DNA of 64,000 nucleotides from Rhizaria sp. SCN 62-66 (Eukaryota), in assembly GCA_001724265.1 (NCBI GenBank), contig MEDY01000034.1, positions 1-64,000 on the forward strand, given 5' to 3'. The translations under genes and the position numbers were made by a program. This document shows positions 1 to 64,000 of this stretch, in pieces. Each line of letters opens with the position of its first letter. Positions within the stretch are counted from its first letter, which is position 1. The notes below the pieces were generated by a model. That model saw nothing but the letters and a program-made list of their open reading frames with translations, was not told the DNA's origin and ran no database searches.

Positions 1-2790
1 CGGGCGGCCTCGCGGGCGGCGGCGCGCGCGGCGGCGGCGCGGGCGGCGGCAGCGGCGGAGGCCGGCGAAGGCGCGAGGCGCGGGAGCAGCGTCGGCAGGC
101 GCGGCGGCGCCGGCGGGAGCAGCGCGAGCGAGATGAGCCGCAGCGGGTTCCAGCGCCGCGCCGCAGTGAGGGCGCTCGCGAAAGCGCTGGGGACAAAGCG
201 CGCGTACGTGTTGCTGCGCAGAGGCGATTGCTGTGATTGTGGAGACTGCGTAGTGAGCGACTGTGGGCTAGCGGGACTGCGTTCACGCGACTCGGCATCA
301 GCCTCAGCGTCAGAGCCAGAGGCAGTGTCTTCAGAGACATCGTCACTACTTGAGTCACTAGCTTTGGCCGCAGTGCCAGCCGCCGCGTTCCTCTTGGCGT
401 TGCTGGCGGCGAGGATGGCGCGGGCGCGCGCCTTGCCCTCAGCGGACATGAGCACCAGAACATGCACCTGGAGCGACAACGCCAGGTCGCCCACGCTCAC
501 CGTCACCGGTAGAGACGCGAACGGTTTCACCTTGCCCGCCGCACTCACAGCGGCACTCGCAGCGGGGCCCGCGGCAGTACTCACGGGACGCGTGTGCGAC
601 TGCGACAGGGTCGGTGATCGCGGGCTCGGGCCGGCGGGGGGCGACTTGGCCCCCGTGAGGCTGGAGAGGCCACCCAGCACCGCGTCTCGGAGCGCGGTGA
701 AGGTCTCCAGCCCCGGCAGCGCGAAATCGAGCGAGGTGGACAGCGAGGCCGAAAGCGCGGCGTCGGTCGACACCTCGAGCACGAGCAGCGTGTCCGCGCC
801 AGTGCCCGCAGGCGCAGCGCTGGCGGTCACGGGCTGGGACCGGGTGGGGGACGACACGCCAGCCGCCGCGGCCGCAGCCGCGGAGACAGAGCCCGCTGAA
901 GCCGCGAGCTAAGGCAGCTCGGTGTTGAGCCTGAGCGCGCCCAGCGGCAGCGGCGTCGGCGAGCTGGGGCCGCCGCCGGGGATGCGAGAGGCAGTGTTGA
1001 CGCCCACGGGGGACTGCGGCACCAAAGCAACCACAGCCTGCTGCTGCTGCTGCTGCTGCTGTTGTTGTTGCCCTGCGGAGCTTGAGAGCGGCAGCGGCGA
1101 CATTGCGCCTCGCGCTGCCGCGGACGGCGAGAGCAGGTGCATCGATTGGCGTGCACGCGCGCGCGCGGCGGCCGCGGCGGCCGGGGCGCGCGGGGAAAAG
1201 CTCGCGAGCAGCGACTTGGACGCGCTGGCCACGGCGGAGGCGTCGGCGGGCTTATCAGCAGAGTCAGAGGCAAAGGCAGTGTCGGCGGAGGTAGCGAGCG
1301 CGCCCGACTGAGGCTGAGCCTGTGGTGCTTTGACGTTGATGGTCAAAGCATTCGCACTGTCTGTGCTAGCATCAGTAGCGTTCGCACCCACAGAGTCAGC
1401 GCTACTGTCCGCATTCGAGTTCGCCGCATCTGCCTTGTTTTTTATATTGCCGTTGTTGCTGTAGCGCGACTGCGGGCGCATGTCGGGCGAGGGCGGAATC
1501 GTCGACCGTGGCAGAGACGGCAGGACGCCGCTCAGACTGCTGCTGCTGCTCGCCAGCGCCCCGTCCCCGTCGTCGTCGGAGTAGTTGCCGCGGCCGCTGC
1601 CGCCGTTGTTGATATTGTTGAAGCGGGTGCGATACCCAGTCTGCTGCTGGTGCTGGGGCTGCTGCAGTTGAAACATGTCGCTACTCTCGTTGTCATCGTG
1701 GTCGTCGCCGCGCTTTGCGGCGCTCGCAGCGCTGCTCGCGACCATGTCGCCGCTGCTGGTGTGAACAACAGCGCTGCTCTGAGGGCGGGAGCGGAACTCA
1801 GCCGCTGGGGCGCTGGGGGGCGGGACGGGACCGAAAAAGTCGAGCCTGCCCCCCGCCGCGCCCCGCAGGCCTGCGCCTCGCATCTGCTGCTGCTGTGGTG
1901 GCTGCAGCTGCGGCTTCACGGGCGAGCCGGGGACCGACTGCAGCGCGGCGGGTGGGTTCGAGTTGCTGCTGTAGGCGCCCATGCTCGAGAGCAGCAGCAA
2001 CTGCTGCGCCTGCACCTGCAGCTGCGCGTTGCCACCGCCGCCGCCCGCAGCACCCGTGCCCGCGCCAGCGCCAGACTGGGCCTGGGAGTGTGGCTGAGTG
2101 CCGAGCACCTCGAGCGCGCCCCCGACGGCCGCGGCGGCGGTAGCGGGAACCTCGTGCTTGACGCGCGTGACGGCCGTGTCGGTCAGGAACGCTGCCACGA
2201 CCTCGGGCCCCGCGGCGGCGAGCAGGCGGATCTGGAAAGCTGGCGCCGAGGGGCTAATGGTCAGGTTCGTAACCGTCGGCGCGGAGAGCGGGGAGAGGCG
2301 CAGCAGGCTGTGCGCGGGGATCGAGCCCAGCAGGCGGTCCGCGAACGACAAACCGTCGTCATCGTCGTCGCTTTTCTGCTGCTGGTTGCCACCACGGGGG
2401 GCGCCGTCACCGGAGCTGAGGCCGCGCTTGGCTTCCTCTGCGTCGTCATCATCGCCGCTAATGTCGGCAAACGCAGCGGGGGAGGCCTGCGTGGCGCTGC
2501 GCAGAATGGCGTGCTGGCGGTCCGTGATTGCACAGTGAATGGCCGCGAGGGTCTTCTCAGGCACGGTCGACAGGGACTCGTTCAGCAGCGCCTGCAGCCG
2601 GGACGCGTTCTCCGGCGTCGACAGGGAGTCCCTATAGCGCAAAAGCGATACGCAATCATCAGATGGTGTAATGGATGAGATAGAAGGTTAGGTGATGGCT
2701 GGATGAAGATCGGAGCAACGATGTGCGTAAGACGGAAGTGAAGCGATTTGCAAAATGACGGATAGAGACGTACCATGCTAGATTCAGCAT
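1..2790 (-). CDS. MDM12: Mdm12-like ERMES SMP-domain protein, 3' partial; exons 2790-2774 and 2631-<1; in-frame TAG at 911-909
   Basis: Splicing of GTACGT...TATAG gives MLNLAWDSLSTPENASRLQALLNESL, like the Mdm12 N-terminus (yeast MSFDINWSTL...RLNDLIRKHLNSYL, from memory). PTVTNLTISPSAPAFQIRLL fits the first SMP strands. After the TAG, DTLLVLEVSTDAALSASLSTSLDFALPG...FASLPVTVSVGDLALSLQVHVLV fits [49 protein letters not shown]. Large Ala/Ser/Gln inserts. Mdm34 is not excluded. Confidence 0.65.
2632..2773 (-). other. Spliceosomal intron, 142 nt, phase 2
   Basis: GTACGT donor, pyrimidine-rich, TTTTTGCGCTATAG acceptor; joins ATG CTG AAT CTA GCA TG|G GAC in frame. Confidence 0.8.
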
Positions 2791-3149
2791 TGTTTAAAAA
2801 GAGGTTGTATGAATTACACAATATAACCGCTGACTATGATAGTCTTGTCGCAACAGACGGAAGTCAGCAGTCACAGATGACGCGCGGATTTAGTCCCACT
2901 CCCACCTACCAACACGCTGCCACAAAGATGCAGTGCGTCACGCACAACGTGAAAAATGAAGTGTAAGCCAATGTAGTGACAATGTCGGTGTTTAATTATG
3001 CGATATATGAGAAATCGATTGTAGTTAGAAGTGTTTTAAATTGTATTATTAGTATCAGTGAATGCTGCAGCCGTCAAACGCAGCGCGCAAAACAAAAGCG
3101 GGGTACAAGTTAACCCAAGCCGAATAGAGAAGACAAAACCAGTCTCTGT

Positions 3150-5180: not shown

Positions 5181-6544
5181 GACGGCGAAAAAAGGGCAGC
5201 AAAGTGGAGAAAAGAGGGAAAATGCAGGTGGGTGAGGGAATGACGTCGGAGTGGAGGCAGAGGGTTTTTTGGTTGGGGATGCGTGTGGGCACTTAAAAGG
5301 CCATAAAAGAACACTCAGGCCCCTTCTTGGCTCAAAATGGTATGGACAAGGCACATGAAGAAAATAGATGCTTCAAGAAACCCCTTCATGGCCATCATAA
5401 GCCGACGGTTTTAGAGCTCCGGTCTGCGTGGTGGGGTTCAAGTGCGTTTAAGCGGAAGCCAATTAAAGACCCTTTCTGCGAAGATGCGCTCGCAGCGTGC
5501 GATCACTAATGCTTAATAAAGAAGCATATATGTACACTTAAACACGCAAATCATCGATCAGAGGCGGAACGCCGATATGAACGACGTAAACCGGGTTTTA
5601 GGAGGAATTCGGCAAGGAGCCTCGCCACCGCTCGGGGCGACGTAGACTTTTGGCGGAACGCGTGGCGCACTCAATTACCCACACATGCAAGAATGAAATA
5701 GCATAATCAAATCACCAATGCATTATGTAAAGTTTTACATTTCAGTTTTCTACAAATAAGCGCAAGAACATCAAAAAAGCTCGATTTACGAAATCCTCGG
5801 GCTGCGGGGAGGACCCTCCCCGAGCGCACCATACAAAAAAGCAAGGCCGCCGAGCACGTTCGCCACCACCACAAACGGCTCGCGCGTTATTGTCGTTCGG
5901 TACATTTTTTCGGTCCAACCATGAGAGAGCGAGCGAGAGGTTTATTCCAAGAAAAACATGTACATTCAAGGACAATAATGAACAACTGTGAAGGTGCGAT
6001 GACATTTGTTATGTATTTAGTAGATAGATGACGTCTGCGACGCGAATAACATAGGTGTAAAAAATAAAATTCAAGGCAAACCCGCCCTCAAAAAGTGAGT
6101 CAACGGAGCTGCCAGGTAGGGTTGTAATGCTCATAACAGCGTGTTTAGTTGTCCACATGCACTACGCGTGCAGACTTTATCGTGTTTTCTGTTAGAACTT
6201 TCCACTGGTCAACGTATAAAGACGTTTATAACAAAGCGCCGCTTTGCTGGCAGTCTGTACGTCAGTTCGTGTGGAGTTACGCACACGAGTGGCAATGGAA
6301 ATGAGTGCTGTTTAAGGAGTTGTTGTGAGGACAAGTCGAGGCGACACGCCAGTGTAGCCAGGGCTGCAGGCAACACCACACGCGGCGCAACGACTCTGGC
6401 GCAGTGGCAGGCGCAGCGGGGCCGAGCGCGGTCCCGCCAGTCCGTCACAACGCTGCGTAGGTCGAAAGTCTTCTTCGTGACGATGGAGAGCTCGTCTCGC
6501 CGGGCACGGAGAGACGGCGAGGCGCGACGGGGGCGGTAGGTAGC

Positions 6545-6952
6545 TTAGAGGGTCTCGGAGAGGGGCTGGTTGGAGATCTCGAGGTTGGCCTGCTTGCGGC
6601 GCATGGCAAAGGCGTAGAGCGCGGTGCGAATGGCCTGGTCGGCGGGCAGCGCGACCTCGGCCGTGGGCGGGTTGCGGAGCGTGCGAAGCTTCCAGTACGT
6701 CTCGGCGAGCTCGGCGCGCTCCGCGGAGCCGTTGGGGGCCTGGCAAGCGAGGGTCATGGTCGCCTGCTCGCGGCGGAGGAAGCCCTCGCGAATACGGGGG
6801 TTAACGGTGGCGGCATCGCTGCCGGCAGGCACCTCGAAGACAGTACGAGGCTCCCACATCAGAGGAGCAAGACCAGCCTCACCACGGAAGTCAGTAGGAC
6901 TCAGGACGGGAGTCTGGAAATAGTCCTTGATAAACTGCATTAAGGCAGACAT
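6545..6952 (-). CDS. 135-aa protein, tentatively complex I NDUFB10/PDSW-like
   Basis: Clean ATG..TAA ORF with GC3 bias. RIREGFLRREQA...ACQAPNG...AELAETYWK loosely resembles PDSW VREKWIQIEKA...WCYRVEG...RHLVQQYLD. The gene is likely real; the family call is weak (about 0.3). Confidence 0.7.
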   Translation of the reverse strand: MSALMQFIKDYFQTPVLSPTDFRGEAGLAPLMWEPRTVFEVPAGSDAATVNPRIREGFLRREQATMTLACQAPNGSAERAELAETYWKLRTLRNPPTAEVALPADQAIRTALYAFAMRRKQANLEISNQPLSETL

Positions 6953-7208
6953 TGCTGTTTGTCTTTGACGGGCCTATGCGCGAGAAAGTCAAAAGAAACA
7001 AACACCCATCTGAGCTCTTCATCACACAGCCAGCCGCGGTCGACCACTGTTCGATTTTTGCGAACCACGCCGCTCGCTGCCTCTTCTGACCGACGACCAA
7101 ATAAAATCACATAGTATCTCAACTATTTCATCGTCAGTAGGTTTCTAGCATGCGTATTAAGATAAGACACTCAATATACATACTGTTGTTCTTTTCGCAC
7201 ATCTTAGA
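6953..7208. promoter_or_regulatory. Putative bidirectional promoter (256 bp)
   Basis: AT-richer spacer between divergent ATGs at 6952 (-) and 7209 (+). Confidence 0.5.
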
Positions 7209-39142: not shown

Positions 39143-42100
39143 ATGGCCGAGCAGGACAAGCACAAGGTCTTCGCTTACGCGGAGGTACGTACTGTGCTGG
39201 ACTTGTTAACACCTACGTTTTCACGAGCACCACAATGTTTCAAAGCTCACAATCTCTCTTTTCTTCCCTTTTTTCTTCCAGACCGCCAACCGTGTGCTGC
39301 GTGCCGAACGCACTGCGACCGGACCTAGTTCAGATGTTCGCAGCCTCAAAGAGGTTGGCACTGCAACTCTCGCCCGCCAGTTCGGCGATAAGGTCCGTCT
39401 ACATATAAATCTTCTTTATTTGGCACGTTGTCTTTCTTTCTACTGCCTATACTCACCCGCAATCTGTTTATGTCTTTTATCTACCCTCTGCCCTGCTGTA
39501 GATTCAAACCTCCCGCTCGGAGGACCTGGCGAAGCTTCTCAAGCGCACCGAGGAGCAGCGCCGCCGCCGCACGGGCGGCCTTGAGGGCAGCGAGGAGACC
39601 CGCCGTCAGCGTTACTCCGCCACCGACTCCCTGCTGACCTCCGAGCAGGAGCTGGGCACCTACACGCCGCGCTCCAAGGAGACCCGCGACGTGTACGAGC
39701 TGCTGCTCGCGTCACTACAGACGGAGCTGGGCGACGTCGCGCACGACGTGCTGCGCTCCGCCGCAGACGAAGTCATCGGCATCCTACGTGCGGACCGCGG
39801 CACGCCCGCGGAGAAGCAGCGTGAGTGCGAGGCCGTGCTCACCCGCGGCCGCGCCATCAAGTCCGAGGTCTTCGGCCGCCTCTTCAACCTCTGCCAGAAG
39901 CTCAACGACTACAACCCGACGCCCGACTCGGACGACGAGGGCACGGCGGCCGGCGGCGATGAAGCCGACGGCGCGCAGACGCAGGCGCGGACGTGGATCG
40001 CAATGGACGGCGACGACGACGTCGCGGGCGCGGACAAGGAGGCCGAGACACTCGACGAGCTCGACATGCTCTACGACTTCGACGTCGCCGGGGACGACGA
40101 CGACGACGCCAACGCGGATCAGACGCTCACGGCGGGCGACGACGACACGTATGCGCACGGTGGTGACGACGACGATGGCGCCGAGGCCGGCGGTGTGCGC
40201 CTCAGCGGCGGCCGCGGCGACTACGGCGAGGCCACGGGCGGCCGCTTCAAGGGACTCGTGCCCCCGCGCGCGATCGACGCGCACTGGCTTTCGCGCGTGC
40301 TCGCGAAGCACTATCCCGACGCGACGGAGGCGCAGCGCGTGGCCTCTGCGTGCTTCGCCGTGCTGGCCGACCGGGACGCGGACCTGCAGGCGGCCGAGAC
40401 GAGGCTCGTGGCGCTGCTCGACTACGACAAGTTCGACCTCATCAAGGTGCTGCTGGCTAACCGCGGCGCGATTGTCTACTGCGTGCGGCTCTCCACAGCG
40501 GCGACGGACGGCGAGCGCGGCGTGATCGAGGCCGAGATGTGTCGCGACGACGCGCTCGCGCTCGTGCTCGCACACCTGCAGAGCGGTACCGATTTCACCA
40601 CGGCGTCCGTCACCATCAACGACGGCGCCAGGGCCGCGCAGCAGGGCCGCGACGGCGACGCCGGTGCGCCGGGTAGCGGCGGTGCGTTCTGGCGCAAGCC
40701 GCGCGGCGTGCTGGACCTGGACACGCTGGCGTTCCAGGCGGGCGCGCACGTGGTCAACACGGCCGAGTGCAAGCTGCCCGAGAACAGCGAGATCATCAAC
40801 CATAAGTCGTACCAGGAGGTCCACGTCCCGCCCGCGCGCGCGCGGCCGATGGGTGAGGACGAGAAGTTCGTCTACATCCCCGACCTGCCCGAGTGGGCGC
40901 ACATGGGCTTCCCCAAGATGGAGAAGCTCAACCGCGTCCAGAGCAAGATCTACGACTGCGCGATGTTTTCCCCCGGAAACATGCTCGTGTGCGCGCCCAC
41001 CGGCGCCGGCAAGACCAACTGCGCGATGCTCACGATCATGCGTGAGATCGGCCTCCACCGCGTGGCCGAGGACGACGTGGCGGCGACCAACGTGAATCGC
41101 GCCCCCGGCGCGCCCGCGCTGGACCTGGACTCGTTCAAGATCGTGTACATCGCACCGATGAAGTCGCTCGTGCAGGAAATGGTTCTCAACTTCACCAACC
41201 GGCTGGAGCCCTACGGCATCACGGTGCGCGAGCTCTCCGGCGACGCGCAGCTGACCAAGGCGCAGCTGCAGAGCACGCAGGTAATTGTGACGACCCCCGA
41301 AAAGTGGGACATCGTCACGCGCAAGGCCGGCGACCGCTCGGCGACCAAGAACGTCAAGCTCGTCATCATCGACGAAGTGCACCTGCTGCACGACTCGCGC
41401 GGGCCCGTGCTCGAGGCCATCGTCGCGCGCACGCAGCGCCAGATCGAGGCCTCGCACCAGCACGTGCGCCTCGTCGGCCTGTCTGCGACGCTGCCGAACT
41501 ACGAGGACGTGGCCATGTTCCTCCGCGTCGACCAAGACAAGAACATGTTCTTCTTCGACAACTCGTACCGCCCCTGTCCGCTGCACCAGCAGTTCATCGG
41601 CGTCAATGTCAAGAAGGCGCTGCGCCGCAACGACATGATGAACCAGCTCACGTACGAAAAGGTGCTCGAGCAGGCCGGCAAGAACCAGATCATCGTGTTC
41701 GTGCACTCGCGCAAGGACACTATCGCCACGGCGCGCTTTCTGCGCGACCTTGCCGTGGAGCAGCAGGAGATTGGCCGCTTTCTGGACTCGACCTCCGGCC
41801 ACGCCGAGGTGCTCAAGGCCGAGGCCGCGAACGCCGCGCACGCGGGGCTCAAGGAGCTGCTGCCGTACGGCTTCGCGTTCCACCACGCCGGCATGACGCG
41901 CGCTGACCGCACGCTGGTGGAGGACCTCTTCGCGGGCAAGCATTGCCAGGTGCTGGTGTCGACGGCGACGCTGGCGTGGGGTGTGAACCTGCCCGCGCAC
42001 ACAGTCATCATCAAGGGCACGCAGGTGTACTCGCCCGAGAAGGGCAAGTGGGTCGAGCTCTCGCCGCAGGATGTCACGCAGATGGTGGGCCGCGCCGGCC

Positions 42101-45100
42101 GTCCGCAGTACGACGCCTACGGTGAGGGCATCCTCATCACGACGCAGAAGGAGCTGCAATTCTACCTGTCGCTGCTCAACGAGCAGCTGCCGGTCGAGTC
42201 GCAGCTCATGTCCAAGCTCGCCGACTTCCTCAACGCCGAGATCGCCGCGGCGACTGTGGAGACGGTGCGCGACGCCGTGACGTGGCTCAACGACACGTAC
42301 CTGTACATCCGTATGCTGCGCCGCCCGGGGCTGTACGGCATCACGGCCGAGATGCTCGAGGAGGACCCCGAGCTGGTGCAGTTCTGCACCGACCTCGTCC
42401 ACTCGGCCGCGCTCGTGCTCGACAATGGCGGGCTGATCAAGTACGACCGCAAGGCGGGCTCGTTCACGCCCACGGAGCTGGGCAAGGTCGCCTCGGCCTA
42501 CTACCTGTCGCACACGTCAATGGCCGTGTACAACGAGAACCTGCGCCCGTCGATGTCGGACATCGAGCTCTTCAGCATCTTCTCCATGTCGAGCGAGTTC
42601 AAGTTCATGGCCGTGCGCGAGGAAGAGAAGCTGGAGCTGGCCCGTCTGCTCGACAAGGTCCCTATCCCGGTCCGCGAGGGCGTCGACGACCACTTGGCCA
42701 AGGTCAACGTGCTGCTGCAGGCCTACCTCTCGCGCCTCTCGCTCGACGGCTTCGCGCTCATGGCCGACATGGTCTACGTCACCCAGTCCGCGGGCCGCAT
42801 CCTCACCGCGCTATTCCAGATCCTGCTGCGCCGCGGCTGGTCGCAGGCGGCGCTGCGCGCGCTGAACCTGTGTAAGGCCGTGCAGCACCGCATGTGGTCC
42901 GCCCAGACGCCCTTGCGGCAGTTTCCCGAGATCTCGCCCGAGCTCATCCGCCGCATCGAGAACAAGGACCTGACGTGGGAGCAGGTCCGCGACCTGGACG
43001 AGGCGACGCTGGGCGAGACGGTGCGCCGCCCACAGCTGGGCAAGCCGCTGTACCGCCACGTGCACCAGGTCCCGCGCCTGCACCTGCAGGGCCACGTGCA
43101 GCCCATCACGCGGTCCACGCTTAAGGTGACGCTGCAGATCACACCCGACTTCATGTGGAACAGCGAGATCCACGGTGCGGCCGAGGCCTTCTGGATCATC
43201 GTCGACGTCGACGACGAGCTGGCGCTGCACTCGGAGCACTTCACGCTGCGGCAGAAGTTCGCCACCAAGGAGCACACGGTGTCGTTCGTCGTGCCCATCC
43301 TCGACCCGCTGCCGCCGCAGTACTTCGTGCGCGCCGTGTCGGACCGCTGGCTGGGCGCTGACGTGGTGCTGCCCATCTCGTTCCGCCACCTGCTGCTGCC
43401 CGACAAGTACCCGCCGCTGACGCAGCTGCTCGACCTGCAGCCGCTGCCCGTGCACGTGGTCGCCAACGAGCAGTTCATCAAGTTCTTCGACTTCGCCACG
43501 TTCAACCCGATCCAGACGCAGGTGTTCAACGCCGTGTACAAGCGCGACGACTCGGTCATCGTCGCCGCGCCGACGGGCTCCGGCAAGACTGTGCTGGCCG
43601 AGCTGGCCATCATGCGCATGCTCAGCCAGGCCACGCTCGCCCGCGACCGCCGCGCGCAGAAGGCCGGCGCCGCCGCGGCCGACGCCGACGAGGATGAAGA
43701 CGAGGACGACGGCGTGTACCGCGCGGTCTACCTCGCGCCCTTCGACGCGCTGGCCAAAGAACGCTTCCTCGACTGGCACGGCAAGTTCGGCAAACTCGCG
43801 GGCGTCGCCGTGCGCATGCTCACTGGAGAGCTGTCGACGGACCTGCGCCTGCTCGAGGAGGCGCAAGTCATCGTCGCCACGCCCGCGCACTGGGACGCGC
43901 TGTCGCGTCGCTGGCGCACGCGGTTGGCCGTGCAGCAGGTGCGCCTGGTCGTCGCCGACGAGTTGCACCTGCTCTCGAGCCGCGCGGGCCCCATGCTCGA
44001 GATCGTGCTCACGCGCATGCGCTACATCGCGACGCAGTTGCAGCGGCCCGTCCGCATTGTCGGGCTGGCCGCCTCGATCGCCAACGCCAAGGACATCGGT
44101 GAGTGGGTCGGCGCGCGCAACGTCTTCGCGTTTCTGCCAACGGCGCGGCCCTCTGCGCTCGACGTCAAGATCGTCGGTTTCGACTACGACTCGTTCGAGG
44201 GCCGCCAGGTTGCCATGACCAAGCCGTGCTTCTCGGCTGTGTTGCGCGAGGCGCCCGACGCGCCCGCGCTCGTCTTCGCGCCCACTCGCAAGCACTGCGG
44301 CGCCGTCGCTGCCGAGCTCGTCACGCTGGGCGCGGCGTACGGCGCCGAGGTCCGCGCGGCGCGCATTTTCCACCGCATGAAGCTGGGCATGGCTGCCGAG
44401 GAGGCGGAGAAGCTGGAGCGCGAGGACCGGCCCGTGTGGCTGCGCGCCGACGCCGAGGACATCGCGCCGCACCTCAAGTTCGTCTCCGAGGCGCTGGCGG
44501 AGCTGCTGGCGCACGGTGTGGGCGTGTTCCACAGCGGCATGAGCGACCGCGAGCGCGAGGTCGTGCGCCGCCTCTTCGCACTGGGCGCGCTGCATATCGT
44601 CGTCGCCGAGTCGGCGCTGTGCTGGAGTGTCGGCAACAGTATGAACGCCAAGCTCGTCGTGCTCATGGACACGCAGCAGTACGACAACACGGAGCAGCGC
44701 TACGTGGACCTGCCCGTGACGGACCTGCTGCAGATGATCGGCCGCGCCAACCCCAGCTCGCTGCGCGCGCCGGGCAGCACGGCGACGGCGGCGGACGTGG
44801 GCAAGTGCTACGTGCTGTGCCACACGCCGCGCCAGGCGTTCCTGCGCAAGTTCATCTACGAGCCCTTCCCGATCGAGTCGCATCTGGACCACGCGCTGCA
44901 CAACTGCTTCAACTCCGAGGTCGTGGCCAAGCGCATCGGGTCGATCCAGGACGCCATCGACTACCTCACCTGGTCCTTCTACTACCGCCGCCTGGTCAAG
45001 AACCCTAACTACTACAACCTGCAGGGCACGGGCAACGAGTTCGTGTCGGACCACCTGTCCGAGCTGGTCGAGCAGACGCTGGACGACCTGGCGCAGGCGC

Positions 45101-46131
45101 AATGCGTCAAGGTGGACGAGGACGGCGACGTGGCACCGCTGAACCTGGGCCACATTGCGGACCACTACAGCCTCGACTACACGACGGTGGAGCTCTTCAG
45201 CAAGACGCTCTCGGGCTCGGTCAAGCTGCGCGACCTGCTCGAGACCATCTCGGCCGCCACCGAGTTCGCCGACGTGACGGTGCGGCACCGCGAGGACCTG
45301 GCGCTGGCGCGGCTGGCCAATCACCTGCCGCTCGCCATCTCGGGCGCCGACTACGCCGACGCGGCGACCAAGGTCAACGTGCTGCTGCAGGCGCACTTCT
45401 CGCGCATTCCGCTCACGGCCGCCGTCGCGGCGGACCAAACCGAGCTGCTGCCCACGGCGATGCGCCTGCTCTACGCCGCCGTCGACGTGGCCTCTTCGGC
45501 GCGGCTGCTCGCGCCCGTGATCAGCGCGATCGAGCTGACGCAGATGGTGACGATGGGCATGTGGCCCGCGGAGCCGCAGCTGCTGCAGGTGCCGCACTTC
45601 GACCTGGACACGGTGCGCCGCCTCGCGCAGCGCAAGGTCAACACCGTGGCGGACTTGCTCGAGATGGAGGACGAAGACCGCGACGCGGCGCTGCAGCTGC
45701 CCGCGGGCAAGATGAGCGATGTGGCGCGCTTCTGCAACGCCTTCCCCGACATCGCCGTCAAGTTTTCCGTGCTGACGCCCGAGGACGACATCGTCGTCAA
45801 CGGGCGCGTATCGCTGGGCGTGGTGCTGGAGCGCGACCCCGAGGGCGACGAGGAGGACTTCGAGGAGGGCGTCACCACGGTCGTGGCCCCGCGCTACCCC
45901 AAGGTCAAGCACGAGTCCTGGTGGCTCGCACTCGGCTCCGTCGAGCGCAACGAGCTCTGGGGCATCAAGAAGGTCTCGCTCAAGAACAAGGTCACCAAGA
46001 TGAAGTTCGACTTTGTCGCCCCGCAGGCCGGAATGCACGAGCTCAAGCTGTTTTTGCTCTCGGACTCGTGGGTCGGCGCGGACCAGGAGTACGCTGTCGC
46101 GCTCAAGGTCGCTGGGGACATGACGGACTGA
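39143..46131 (+). CDS. SNRNP200: U5 snRNP 200 kDa helicase Brr2; exons 39143-39184, 39282-39392, 39502-46131
   Basis: Two Ski2-like cassettes (APTGAGKT/DEVH and APTGSGKT/DELH), each followed by a Sec63 unit. Spliced N-terminus FAYAETANRVLRAER...FGDK...YTPRSKETRDVYELLL matches Brr2. TGA stop. Confidence 0.97.
39185..39281 (+). other. Brr2 intron 1 (97 nt)
   Basis: GTACGT donor, polypyrimidine tract and CCAG acceptor; phase 0, frame kept. Confidence 0.9.
39393..39501 (+). other. Brr2 intron 2 (109 nt)
   Basis: GTCCGT...CTGTAG; phase 0; joins FGDK|IQTSR in frame with the long ORF. Confidence 0.85.
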
Positions 46132-53225: not shown

Positions 53226-56089
53226 TCACACGCCATCGCCCACCGTCGCAGCGTTGCTGTTATACATCACACCCGCGCGCCCGCTGCGACCCGCCGCAGC
53301 CTCCGCCGCCGCGGCCGAGGCGTCGACCTCGTTCATCAGCTGCTCTAGCAGCTCCGACGCCGAGGCGACCCCTGCGGCGCGCGTGCCGGTGGTGCCGTGC
53401 GCGCGCGGCATCGTGGCCGCGATCGCGTCGAGCGGGTTCACGGGGTGCGGGCACATCGCCGTTGCGGCCGAGGGCGCACAGGCGGGGCCCACCGTCGCGG
53501 CGGCGCCGTGGCCGGACAACCCGGAGCTGTAGAAGCCGCCGCCGTTCGACAGGTTGTTGCCGTTGGCGACTGAAGGGGCGGTGTTCTCGCTCGACACGGG
53601 GCCGCGCCAGTGCGCGTTCGTGGGCGGCGTGGACATCGAGGACGACAGCAGCGCGTTGAGCTCGTGCTTGATGCTGTGGAGCTCGGCCGCGTCGCGCCGC
53701 ACGCCGACCTCCTGGTGGCGGGCGAGGTACTGGAGGCGGAGACGCTGCACGTCGGCACGCTCAAGCTGTGAGGAAATATCATTGAATAAAAAGAAAATAG
53801 ATATAGTGTGAGATTGCTCATAAATAATACACAAGGAATATTAACCAACAATCACTAAAATGGTCGGGAAAAAAGCGTACCTGAATGCGCTCCTCCTGCT
53901 CCTGCTCGCGCTGCTTGCGCAGCCGCGCGACCTCCTGCAGCGCGCGCAACAGCTGAGCTTTCGTCTCTTTGAGCTTCTCCTGGTTCTCGGTGAGCATGCG
54001 GGCAGCATCAGTGCTCTTGATCTCCTCCTCGGCCAGCGTCGCCTTGAGCTGGCCAACCTAAAATAAATGTACAATAAAGTTCAAAAGAAAAGAATGAAGT
54101 GCAATCAAGTGATAAGACTTTGTCCAGACAATTGAAACGGAATTATAACGGTTAAAAATACGCTCAAACAAAAGACAGTGTTAAATAAGTTTTGAATAAA
54201 CGTACGGTTGACTTGTGCCAGCGCGACTTGGCAATGCGGAACTCCTCGTCGAGCTCGGTGAACCGTGCCTGCGTGGCCGCGAGCTTGGCCTTGACGATCT
54301 CGTACTGGCGGCGGAGCTCGTCGTGCACCATGCGCGCCATGCCGATCTGGTGCTTGTGCTGGTCCTTAAGTCGCGTGATGGTCAGCAGCGCGTCGCGCTT
54401 CGCCGACTCGATTTCGGTCGTGATGTTGGCGTCGCGGCGCGCGAGCTCCTCCTCGCCCAGCCGCAGCCGTTTCTCCTGCTTCTCCACGTCGAACAGTGCC
54501 TCCTTGAGCTTCTTCTCTAGTTTCGCTACGTCCTTCTGCCTGCGCGCAAACGTCTGTTCGCGCGTGATCTCCTGCGCGCGCCATTCGGCCTCCAGCTCCT
54601 GCATGCGCACGGCCTCGCGCTCCTGCAGCTGCGCCAGCCAGCGCGCCTGCTCCGCGCGCTTCCACATCGCCAGCTCCCACGCCGCCTGGTACTCGAGCCC
54701 GCTCTGCACGGGGCCCGCGTCCTGCGCCGCGCCGCCGCGATCCAGCCCGCTCTCGGCGCTGCCTTCAGCCGGGTCCGCGCCGCCCGTCGCGGCGGCCACG
54801 GCGGCCGCGGCGGCCGCTGCGGCGGCTTCGGCGGCCCGACCGGGCGACAGGGACGCGGACGGGGACTGCATGTGGCCCGCGTAGCCGCCAAACTGGCCCG
54901 GACCGCTACTGCCGGTGGCTCCGGACGCGGCGGCGGCCGCGGCGGCAGCTGCGGCGGCGTTGGCAGCATGGACCGACGCGGGGTTGTTGGGGTCGAGGTG
55001 CGGGTAGAGCATGCGCTGCTGGGCGGCGAACTGCTCCTGCTGCGCGACCGTGAGCCCCGATGCGGTCATTGACACGCCGTTGGAGTAGAACGAGCCGTCC
55101 TGTGCGGCGCTCAGCCCACCCGCGGCGGCGATCGAGGCCGCGGTGGCGGGGCCGAAGCACTCGAGTGAGATTGTCAGGCGCAGCGCGGCGAGCGGCGACA
55201 CCGCCGGGGGCTCCGCGCCCGCGGCCGCGGCAAGCTGCACGCTCTGCGCCGCCGTCTCGGTGATCAGGCGCGTAATGGCGCCGTCGCCGCACTTGGCGGC
55301 CGCGCGCTGCAGCTCCGGGTTCGCCGCCGGGAGGACGGGGCAGATGGCGTCCGACACGCGCACCGGGACGGCGGCGCCCGCGCGGTCGGTCACAAACCAC
55401 GGCGCGTGGAGCAGCGACGAGAAGTTTATAATTGCGGCGCCGATAAAGCTACAACATGTGGAGAAACAACAAATAGGATGCAGTTTAAGACGCGGGAGTT
55501 AAAGAACAAGAAAAAGAGTTCTTGGTGAAGCAAAGTAGTTGCAACTGTCCGTTCAAAGTTGTAGAGGGCGGTAACGTACGTGTCATCGGAGCGGACCTGC
55601 GGCGCGTTGCCGTCAGCATTGTTGCGGATATCAGCAATACGGCGAAGACGCGAGGTGGGGTCACGGCCGGCGACGCTGGGGGCATCCCAGATTTGGATCA
55701 GCAAGGGGGTGCTGGCGAGGTTGCTCGCCAGAGCGGCCTCTGTCGTGGTGAATTCGCAGGCAAAAAAGCCGTTCATAACATCTGCATCGCCGGCATTGCT
55801 CACCTGTAAGTAGGTATAAAAGATGGTAGTGAGGCAGTGAGATACAGTGAGACTTGACGAAAGTAGAGGGCTTGAATATGAAACGAGGAGGCAGTGATCG
55901 CGCAGAGACGGGCGAGACGAAGGAACGTACGGGAACGGGAGGCCCCGAGATACTCTGCTTCTGAGAGTCAAAAAGTGGGTATGAAAAGCGACAGTAGACG
56001 TTATATGGCTCGCAGAAGCCATTGAGTCGACGCAAGTCGACAGTCACCCGAAAGTGACTCTCGACGTTGGGGTCAATGTCCACCGACAT
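53226..56089 (-). CDS. CEP120: CEP120-like centriolar protein (one C2 domain plus coiled coil); exons 56089-55931, 55803-55580, 55448-54206, 54057-53881, 53765-53226
   Basis: HFRVTVDLR...YCRFSYPLF...GPPVPV...FFACEF...PLLIQIW...FIGAAIINFSSLL fits CEP120 C2C. LEYQAAWELAMWK...MQELEAEW, RALQEVARLRKQREQE and RLRLQYLA...EL..IKHELN match the coiled coil. Four frame-preserving introns (donors GTACGT x3, GTACGC). TGA stop. Confidence 0.85.
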
Positions 56090-63001: not shown

Positions 63002-64000
63002 TTATTGAGTGTCACTGTCCTGTTGGTGGCTATTTTGATACTTCATCTTGACCTCCGCGCGTCGGGCTTTACGCTCATCGCGTGTCTTGGCCTTCTTATC
63101 CTCCAGTGCACGCGAACGCAGTTCATCAATCACAGTAAAGGGAACATACATTTCACTCGAAGCAGTTGCCGCTCGTGCAGCTGGGAGACCAAGCTCGCGT
63201 AGCGTCACTGTGGCGTCGGTATGGAACTGCTGCATCACATCTCCAAAAAACGGCTTAGCATCACTGTTCAAGTGCAGCGACTGCAAGCATCCGTGCGTTG
63301 TGTCGAACGCTGAGGCGAAGTCGGGGTAGAGCAGTGCGGCCGCCGTGGGGTCGGAGAAACGCAACGCAACATCACTCGAGTTGCGAGCTTGCTTGGCGGC
63401 AGTGATTAAGTCAGTGTTACTCGCAGTCTACATTGTAGCAAGAGGAACATAACACGGAATGTGCGCCTAACAGCTCTGCACACCACTGCCATTCACCGCA
63501 CTGTTAGCAGCGGCGACACGCATCGGTGCGATAACAGTCGAGAACTCGCGACGAGTAGTCTTTATGTTGTTCTGCACACCGCCAGTGGTACTAGAGCGAC
63601 CAATGCTGGCGATCTTGCCGCTACCAGCAAACCACTGCTTGCTGGCGCCACCAGTCTTTAAGTCACCCGCATTTGCGTTGTCGCGACTCGTCTTATTGTC
63701 GCTGCCTGCCTTGTTATTGTTAGGCGCTACGGTCACATTGGCACCAGCAGCAGTGGCGTCAGCAGCACTCGCAGTAACAGCAGCGGCAGCGGCGGCGGCG
63801 GCGCGGTCGGCGGCCTCCCTGTCACGGCGGTTCAGCCGCGAGCCTTGCACGCGCTTCGCTGTGGCGTCAATCGCCGCGCTTGCAGTTGCAGCGCACTTGT
63901 ACGAAGTGTCCAAGGCATCACCTGCGGCAATGATTGACAGCTCGGACTGCAGCGACGCAGGGCGGAGGAATGCGGAAGCAGCACGGATACGACGCTTGTT
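63002..64000 (-). CDS. 3' part of an unknown protein; one frame interrupted by two TAGs (63469-63467, 63430-63428) or by a short intron
   Basis: Frame is open from 64000 to the first TAG. Track ORFs 63467..63913 and 63002..63364 share a frame. Ends in a charged tail (KKAKTRDERKARRAEVKMKY) and TAA followed by AT-rich DNA. Confidence 0.65.

Follow-up and report, generated by a model that had tools for sequence, protein, structure and literature searches.

A single in-frame TAG in an otherwise open, transcribed gene of Rhizaria sp. SCN 62-66: possibly a tolerated premature stop codon

Does the TAG codon that interrupts a long reading frame at the edge of contig MEDY01000034.1 of Rhizaria sp. SCN 62-66 (assembly GCA_001724265.1) end a protein, or does translation pass through it? 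The window analysed here comprises positions 1 to 64,000 of this contig. The gene in question lies on the minus strand, where the sequence around the stop reads AAC ACC GAG CTG CCT TAG CTC GCG GCT. This TAG, at 909-911, is the sole stop in the 876 codons between 2630 and 3 and sits inside a low-complexity linker, not at the end of a complete protein; the exon that contains it, exon 2 (Table 1), continues off the window at base 1. An earlier note on this DNA had claimed an in-frame TAG followed by about 300 further open codons, and both parts of that claim hold, with 302 codons running on to base 3. The codon is real in the DNA, the frame behind it is coding-like, RNA is found on both sides of it, and TAG does not serve as a sense codon in the other genes scored. 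We tentatively favour, at a little under an even chance, a tolerated premature UAG that goes back to one substitution in a low-complexity, rapidly evolving gene, stands in a weak termination context and undergoes at most low-level readthrough by near-cognate tRNAs.

An open frame alone is weak evidence of coding in this DNA. Stop-free stretches of 302 codons were found in 19 of 505 off-frame windows taken from six other genes, and the plus-strand frame over 1-912 is likewise open. Because an open frame means little in DNA with a guanine-plus-cytosine (GC) content of 70-75%, a codon-usage log-odds score was used, whose training set consisted of 16,613 codons from six further genes of the window and excluded the TAG-bearing gene. 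In the gene frame, this score amounts to 0.313 before the TAG and to 0.272 behind it; the other five frames downstream score between -0.06 and -0.85. A score of 0.272 was attained by none of the 505 off-frame control windows (maximum 0.064) and by 77 of the 101 in-frame control windows, the latter being slightly flattered, as they were drawn from the training genes. Moreover, when windows of 42 codons were slid along the sequence, the gene frame outscored both other minus-strand frames at 39 of 40 positions, including those that touch the TAG. The sole exception was the last window (173-48), where the GC content reaches 82%.

The downstream DNA also differs from what lies behind the ends of other genes. 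The 100 nucleotides (nt) past the TAG have a GC content of 0.79, whereas the corresponding values are 0.26-0.58 for 10 of the window's 11 other stops; the exception is the open reading frame (ORF) ending at 6545, with 0.65. The continuing frame scores +0.23 past the TAG and -0.21 to -1.12 past the 11 other stops. The next in-frame stop comes within 3-41 codons for 10 of these 11, and none is encountered in the 302 codons behind the TAG. The claim that composition remains unchanged past the TAG but drops at true gene ends was thus borne out and can now be expressed in numbers. On the strength of the codon-usage scores, their controls and the contrast with real gene ends, the DNA past the TAG is protein-coding in the same frame, or was so until very recently.

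These comparisons bear directly on the explanation that the TAG is an old, natural gene end followed by an ordinary 3' untranslated region. RNA extending past the stop (see below) would fit such a region. However, the continuing-frame score of +0.23 to +0.27, the high GC content and the 302 codons without a stop all stand apart from the values given above for the other gene ends (for GC content and distance to the next stop, 10 of the 11), and an untranslated region is accordingly considered very improbable. As a separate observation, GC content drops at every gene end of the window except that of the 142-residue ORF at 6545-6973. Behind its TAA, at 6250-6544 on the minus strand, lie about 300 nt with a GC content of 0.63-0.70; approximately 98 codons there are free of stops in the continuing frame, yet none of the six frames of the stretch has a coding score.

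Whether the codon is present in the organism's DNA was examined by comparing Logan contigs of four public runs (X3-X6) with positions 1-3000 of the window. In X3, a second sample of what may be the source study, a 960-nt contig covers 108-1027 without a single difference and keeps the TAG. In X4, which belongs to an unrelated study dated 2025, a contig covering 869-1027 also keeps the TAG and has a single difference, at 975. X4 can be regarded as DNA, since one of its contigs spans 2323-3000 uninterrupted, with the intron and intergenic DNA. Together, X4, X5 and X6 show nine differences from the window, all of them transitions, and therefore represent another strain; no insertion or deletion was found in the frame downstream of the TAG in any of the runs compared. 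A sequencing or assembly error, such as CAG read as TAG, had been among the options raised in the earlier note. As the codon is carried by the X3 and X4 contigs, and hence by three assemblies from two studies, with X4 keeping it despite its difference at 975, an error is excluded for all practical purposes.

The same comparison provides evidence of transcription. X5 is a poly(A) metatranscriptome with contigs over 438-822, which lies past the TAG, and over 1699-2560 (in three pieces). Its cover is RNA-like because its depth is zero on 2601-3000, where that of X4 is 6.58. Thus, the mRNA reaches 470 nt or more beyond the TAG. Nothing is concluded from the points at which the contigs of X6 (896) and X5 (822) stop. 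In general, the stretch is present in wastewater, bioreactor and sludge metagenomes. Its GCG/GCC low-complexity stretches (1-107, 860-900 and 1160-1190) recruit hundreds of contigs from other organisms and produce many false joints; in the first of them, the depth of X3 on 1-100 rises to 7993 (rounded). The assemblies of other samples break at these three stretches and at a CAG run at 1028-1076.

If the codon is genuine and the mRNA passes over it, the TAG might still be removed at the RNA level, either with a short in-frame intron that uses the AG of the TAG as its acceptor or by adenosine-to-inosine editing of UAG to UGG, a mechanism of filamentous ascomycetes. There are 84 GT..AG pairs that would excise the TAG, 34 of which keep the frame. 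The five of these that do not exceed 150 nt in length (93-126 nt) end at CCTTAG, as an intron of this kind would require, and among the RNA contigs listed none is shown to bridge 909-911. However, the donors of these five candidates (GTGGTT, GTTGCT, GTGCCG, GTGGGC and GTCAAC) do not resemble those of the clear introns of the window (GTACGT and GTACGC), and donors of the GTA type, GTGAGT, GTGCGT and GTGAGC are absent from all 34 frame-keeping pairs. Those clear introns, two in number, are AT-richer, whereas the 123 nt before the TAG have a GC content of approximately 0.75. In addition, these 123 nt score as coding (0.20 versus -0.37 and -0.43), whereas intron 1 of the gene is negative in all frames. 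The poly(A) RNA of X5 has a depth of 3.7 at base 975, which lies within all five candidate introns. With regard to editing, a T>C difference at 910 is listed for no run, although RNA cover of that base was not shown. The RNA joints near 909-911, among those listed, have sides of 18-24 letters within GCG/GCC repeats and were treated as repeat artefacts. RNA-level repair is therefore unsupported, and we regard it as improbable.

A different possibility is that UAG is not a terminator in this organism at all, being either unassigned or an early, rarely used sense codon. Codes in which UAG alone is reassigned and UAA is kept as a stop do exist; in PMC5304391, they are described for Iotanema spirale (UAG = Gln) and for the rhizarian exLh (UAG = Leu). 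The present case resembles these in having an in-frame UAG with coding sequence behind it, in using UAA and UGA as stops and in the absence of TAG from the 10 to 11 other gene ends of the window. The lower of these two counts arises because the TGA at 54164 is probably intronic, as an exon with a TTTTAG acceptor comes next; the independent ends then number 10. On the assumption that TAG accounts for roughly one-fifth of all stops, its absence from 10 ends would arise approximately one time in ten, and in so small a sample it is no more than a hint. Furthermore, a scan for tRNA genes across the 64-kilobase window detected none, nor is eRF1 among the genes of the window.

Sense codons speak more clearly. 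The six training genes, which include Brr2 (2209 residues), an ornithine decarboxylase and a BEACH protein of 10,115 codons, contain 510 CAG, 82 CAA and no TAG among their 16,613 codons. In contrast, organisms with UAG-only codes have several in-frame UAG codons per gene, and exLh has 384 across 71 genes, according to PMC5304391; here there is one in the gene under study and none in the codons of the six others. Because documented UAG-only codes show in-frame UAG so frequently, an established reassignment is very unlikely, and the variant code that the earlier note raised as one option is disfavoured in the form of a code with normal use of TAG; the organism probably uses the standard stops. 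A code of the Amoeboaphelidium type, first considered as UAG = Gln, was also dropped, since PMC5304391 gives it as UAR = Gln, and TAA ends five genes here. What is left of the idea is that UAG has ceased to terminate and is coming back into use as a rare sense codon, with 909-911 among its first uses, so that a UAG-only reassignment would have been caught early. Both this early state and the wider reading of UAG as a non-terminator are considered distinctly improbable, the more so as a random hit in the gene would most often create TAG in any case (see below).

Nor is such a reading supported by two further in-frame TAGs, at 63467-63469 and 63428-63430, as they lie in an intron-like stretch of 84 nt. 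This stretch occupies 63388-63471 on the minus strand, inside the gene at 63002-64000, and is probably an intron that preserves the frame, its donor being unusual. It is bounded by the pair GTTAGG..CAAGCAAG, is AT-richer, contains a branch-like ACTGAC motif and has a non-coding score in every frame (-0.87, -0.96 and -0.43); coding-like sequence in the same frame flanks both TAGs.

The identity of the stop codon is easily accounted for by the composition of the gene. Among its 875 sense codons, 120 are one substitution away from TAG (48 of them being CAG), 25 from TAA and 11 from TGA, and CAG becomes TAG by a single C>T transition. A random nonsense hit in this gene would thus yield TAG about three times in four. 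As the mutational target of the gene favours TAG, the fact that the stop is TAG says nothing of a TAG-specific code.

The stop also differs from the others of the window in its context. The base after the TAG is C, followed by U (UAG CUC); after the 11 other stops of the window there are nine purines, two T and no C. The stop stands in a leaky context, as the earlier note had suggested. According to the review PMC4615788, C at position +4 mostly promotes readthrough and generally lowers the efficiency of termination, although one study cited there attributes to it no significant effect at UAG. The same review puts basal readthrough of UAG in mammalian cells at approximately 1-2%, names Gln, Tyr or Lys as the residues inserted, ties the stop-CU context to readthrough and also describes an A-rich context at positions -1 and -2.

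Such a context could be one that selection has preserved. In that case, readthrough would be programmed, and a useful fraction of ribosomes would read the codon and give rise to two isoforms, of 579 residues and of more than 880. The in-frame coding signature that goes on past the TAG, the RNA cover of the downstream part and the presence of the codon in two diverged populations are all consistent with this. Moreover, the coding signature and the C-U after the stop, which follows no other stop of the window, are shared with the programmed-readthrough genes treated in PMC4615788, namely Drosophila kelch, hdc and syn and human LDHB and MDH1 (the stop-CU group). Several features nevertheless set the locus apart. 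Known cellular cases add optional C-terminal extensions, whereas here the stop splits the body of a protein, within a continuous frame and a low-complexity linker. When the 123 nt behind the TAG were folded, no signal of a stimulatory RNA structure was obtained (z = 0.11; 103 of 200 shuffles fold equally well or better). The codon before the stop is CCT, not the A-rich context mentioned in PMC4615788, and no orthologue was found for a comparison of conservation across species. Selected readthrough is thus unlikely, if less so than any of the alternatives described above.

The tolerated premature stop that we favour can be outlined as follows. A single substitution, most likely CAG>TAG, would have created a genomic premature TAG in an otherwise intact and transcribed gene of this GC-rich, uncultured protist, and the populations from which both studies drew their samples would carry the TAG allele. 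A product of 579 residues would result where translation ends at this codon, and the downstream part of at least 302 codons would be made only through misreading of UAG by a near-cognate tRNA (for Gln, Tyr or Lys), which the weak UAG-C context would permit at a low, unselected rate. Such a gene would resemble a premature stop with basal readthrough as described in PMC4615788, in that a single stop stands in an intact frame, is followed by C and permits downstream synthesis only via near-cognate decoding. In support of a nonsense allele, the stop breaks up what was one ancestral frame, all 10 to 11 other genes of the window end in TAA or TGA and are followed by non-coding, AT-richer DNA, and every one of the nine strain differences is a transition. 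We infer that the mutation is recent, that termination is the main outcome and that the stop is leaky.

A number of observations weigh against this interpretation. TAG is what was assembled from both populations, which two studies sampled some ten years apart and which differ at nine other sites; for a harmful allele, dominance in both would be surprising, and it departs from what is typical of a premature stop with basal readthrough. No decay is apparent downstream, where there is no further stop, no insertion or deletion and no change in codon usage. Five of the nine strain differences are synonymous in the gene frame, and the synonymous share downstream of the TAG (3 of 5) is similar to that upstream (2 of 4), though these numbers are far too small to test. 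The leaky C at position +4 is seen at none of the 11 real stops of the window, and the 11 other ORF ends comprise six TGA, five TAA and no TAG.

Similarity searches did not identify the protein. The earlier note had placed the TAG inside an Mdm12 SMP domain. The downstream frame does include two hydrophobic, strand-like stretches, LLVLEVS..LDFALPG and FASLPVTVSVGDLALSLQVHVLVL, and these, together with an N-terminal ..NLAWDSL.. motif, may resemble strands of Mdm12, a likeness that no tool supported. Searches of Pfam with the whole protein and six sub-pieces returned no relevant family at E values up to 10. A sequence search of PDB (phmmer, E values up to 10) gave four irrelevant low-complexity matches for the whole protein and none for either half, and an exhaustive HMMER search of the downstream 302 residues against 1.84 billion representatives gave no match. 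In a word search with the N-terminal 175 residues, none of 8000 candidates of near length and none of 4814 shorter ones scored. Among metagenome contigs of the Joint Genome Institute, 595 pattern matches to the protein query were obtained, none of which was confirmed, and a 39-base pattern with the stop left open had no match. The single-sequence AlphaFold2 model was unusable (mean predicted local distance difference test score 38.6; predicted template modelling score 0.24).

A language-model look-up of the N-terminal 175 residues pointed to the lipid-transfer families Csf1, Hobbit, BLTP1 and VPS13 (0.87-0.91), at a low recognition (1398) at which, as the tool itself warns, such a pattern is common for shuffled proteins; the look-up of the downstream part returned nothing interpretable. 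The likeness to the Mdm12/SMP proteins of the endoplasmic reticulum-mitochondria encounter structure therefore consists of the motif and the two strand-like stretches, whereas the full-length protein would differ from Mdm12 in its length of at least 880 residues, in a low-complexity insert of more than 400 residues and in the lack of any sequence match. The domain label is thus without support from Pfam, the PDB search, the 1.84-billion HMMER search or fold prediction. As no domain has been demonstrated, the argument that stopping at the TAG would cut a domain rests on the coding signal.

The layout of the gene is given in Table 1. The contig of run X6 loses its match at 2632, the border between exon 2 and intron 1, with four unmatched letters past it. 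Near the visible end of the gene, at 202-207 on the minus strand, there is an in-frame GTACGC, a hexamer identical to one of the two clear intron donors of the window; the DNA behind it (1-200) is of low complexity and has a GC content of 78-86%.

Table 1. Parts of the TAG-bearing gene within the window
Feature	Position	Strand	Description
Exon 1	2790-2774	-	17 nt, ATG CTG AAT CTA GCA TG, encoding MLNLA and two bases of a Trp codon; GTACGT follows
Intron 1	2773-2632	-	142 nt, GTACGT..TATAG, GC content 0.46; codon-usage score negative in all three frames (-0.30, -0.51, -0.42)
Exon 2 before the stop	2631-912	-	573 codons, mostly low-complexity (Q, A, S and D runs); codon-usage score 0.313
In-frame TAG	909-911	-	codon 580 of the spliced frame; context CCT TAG CTC
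Frame behind the TAG	908-3	-	302 codons up to the window edge; codon-usage score 0.272

Other genes of the window provide some context for the organism. On the minus strand, an uninterrupted ORF of 10,115 codons (8148-38495), which ends in TGA, encodes an unusually large, intron-less BEACH protein; its PH-BEACH, BEACH, WD40 and FYVE domains lie within the last 3000 residues, and the first 7100 or so have no Pfam match. Three coding-scoring pieces on the same strand within 53226-55498 (55498-54164, 54057-53818 and 53840-53226), none with a Pfam match, appear to be exons of one gene separated by AT-rich introns that have TTTTAG as acceptor and GTACGC as donor. On the plus strand, an intron-less gene at 39502-46131 encodes Brr2/SNRNP200 (2209 residues).

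Matches to Brr2 include an identical partial copy in another assembly (P0003) and relatives that are 87% (P0004), 74% (P0005) and 72% (P0012) identical, whereas identity to named eukaryotes is only approximately 61-68%. A quick, single-gene FastTree phylogeny of 34 rows picked from 120 listed matches unites the window with P0003, P0004, P0005 and P0012 in a fully supported clade of five, which falls outside the groups of fungi plus animals, plants and green algae, and chlorarachniophytes and adjoins metagenome and EukProt rows.

The Mdm12 label should not be propagated. Should the TAG be no more than a tolerated nonsense allele, its importance would hardly go beyond annotation, where gene callers will split or truncate the gene. 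If, by contrast, TAG were found never to terminate genes across the assembly, this would point to an independent UAG-only change of the genetic code, seen unusually early in its course, in a lineage for which wastewater metagenomes are the only source.

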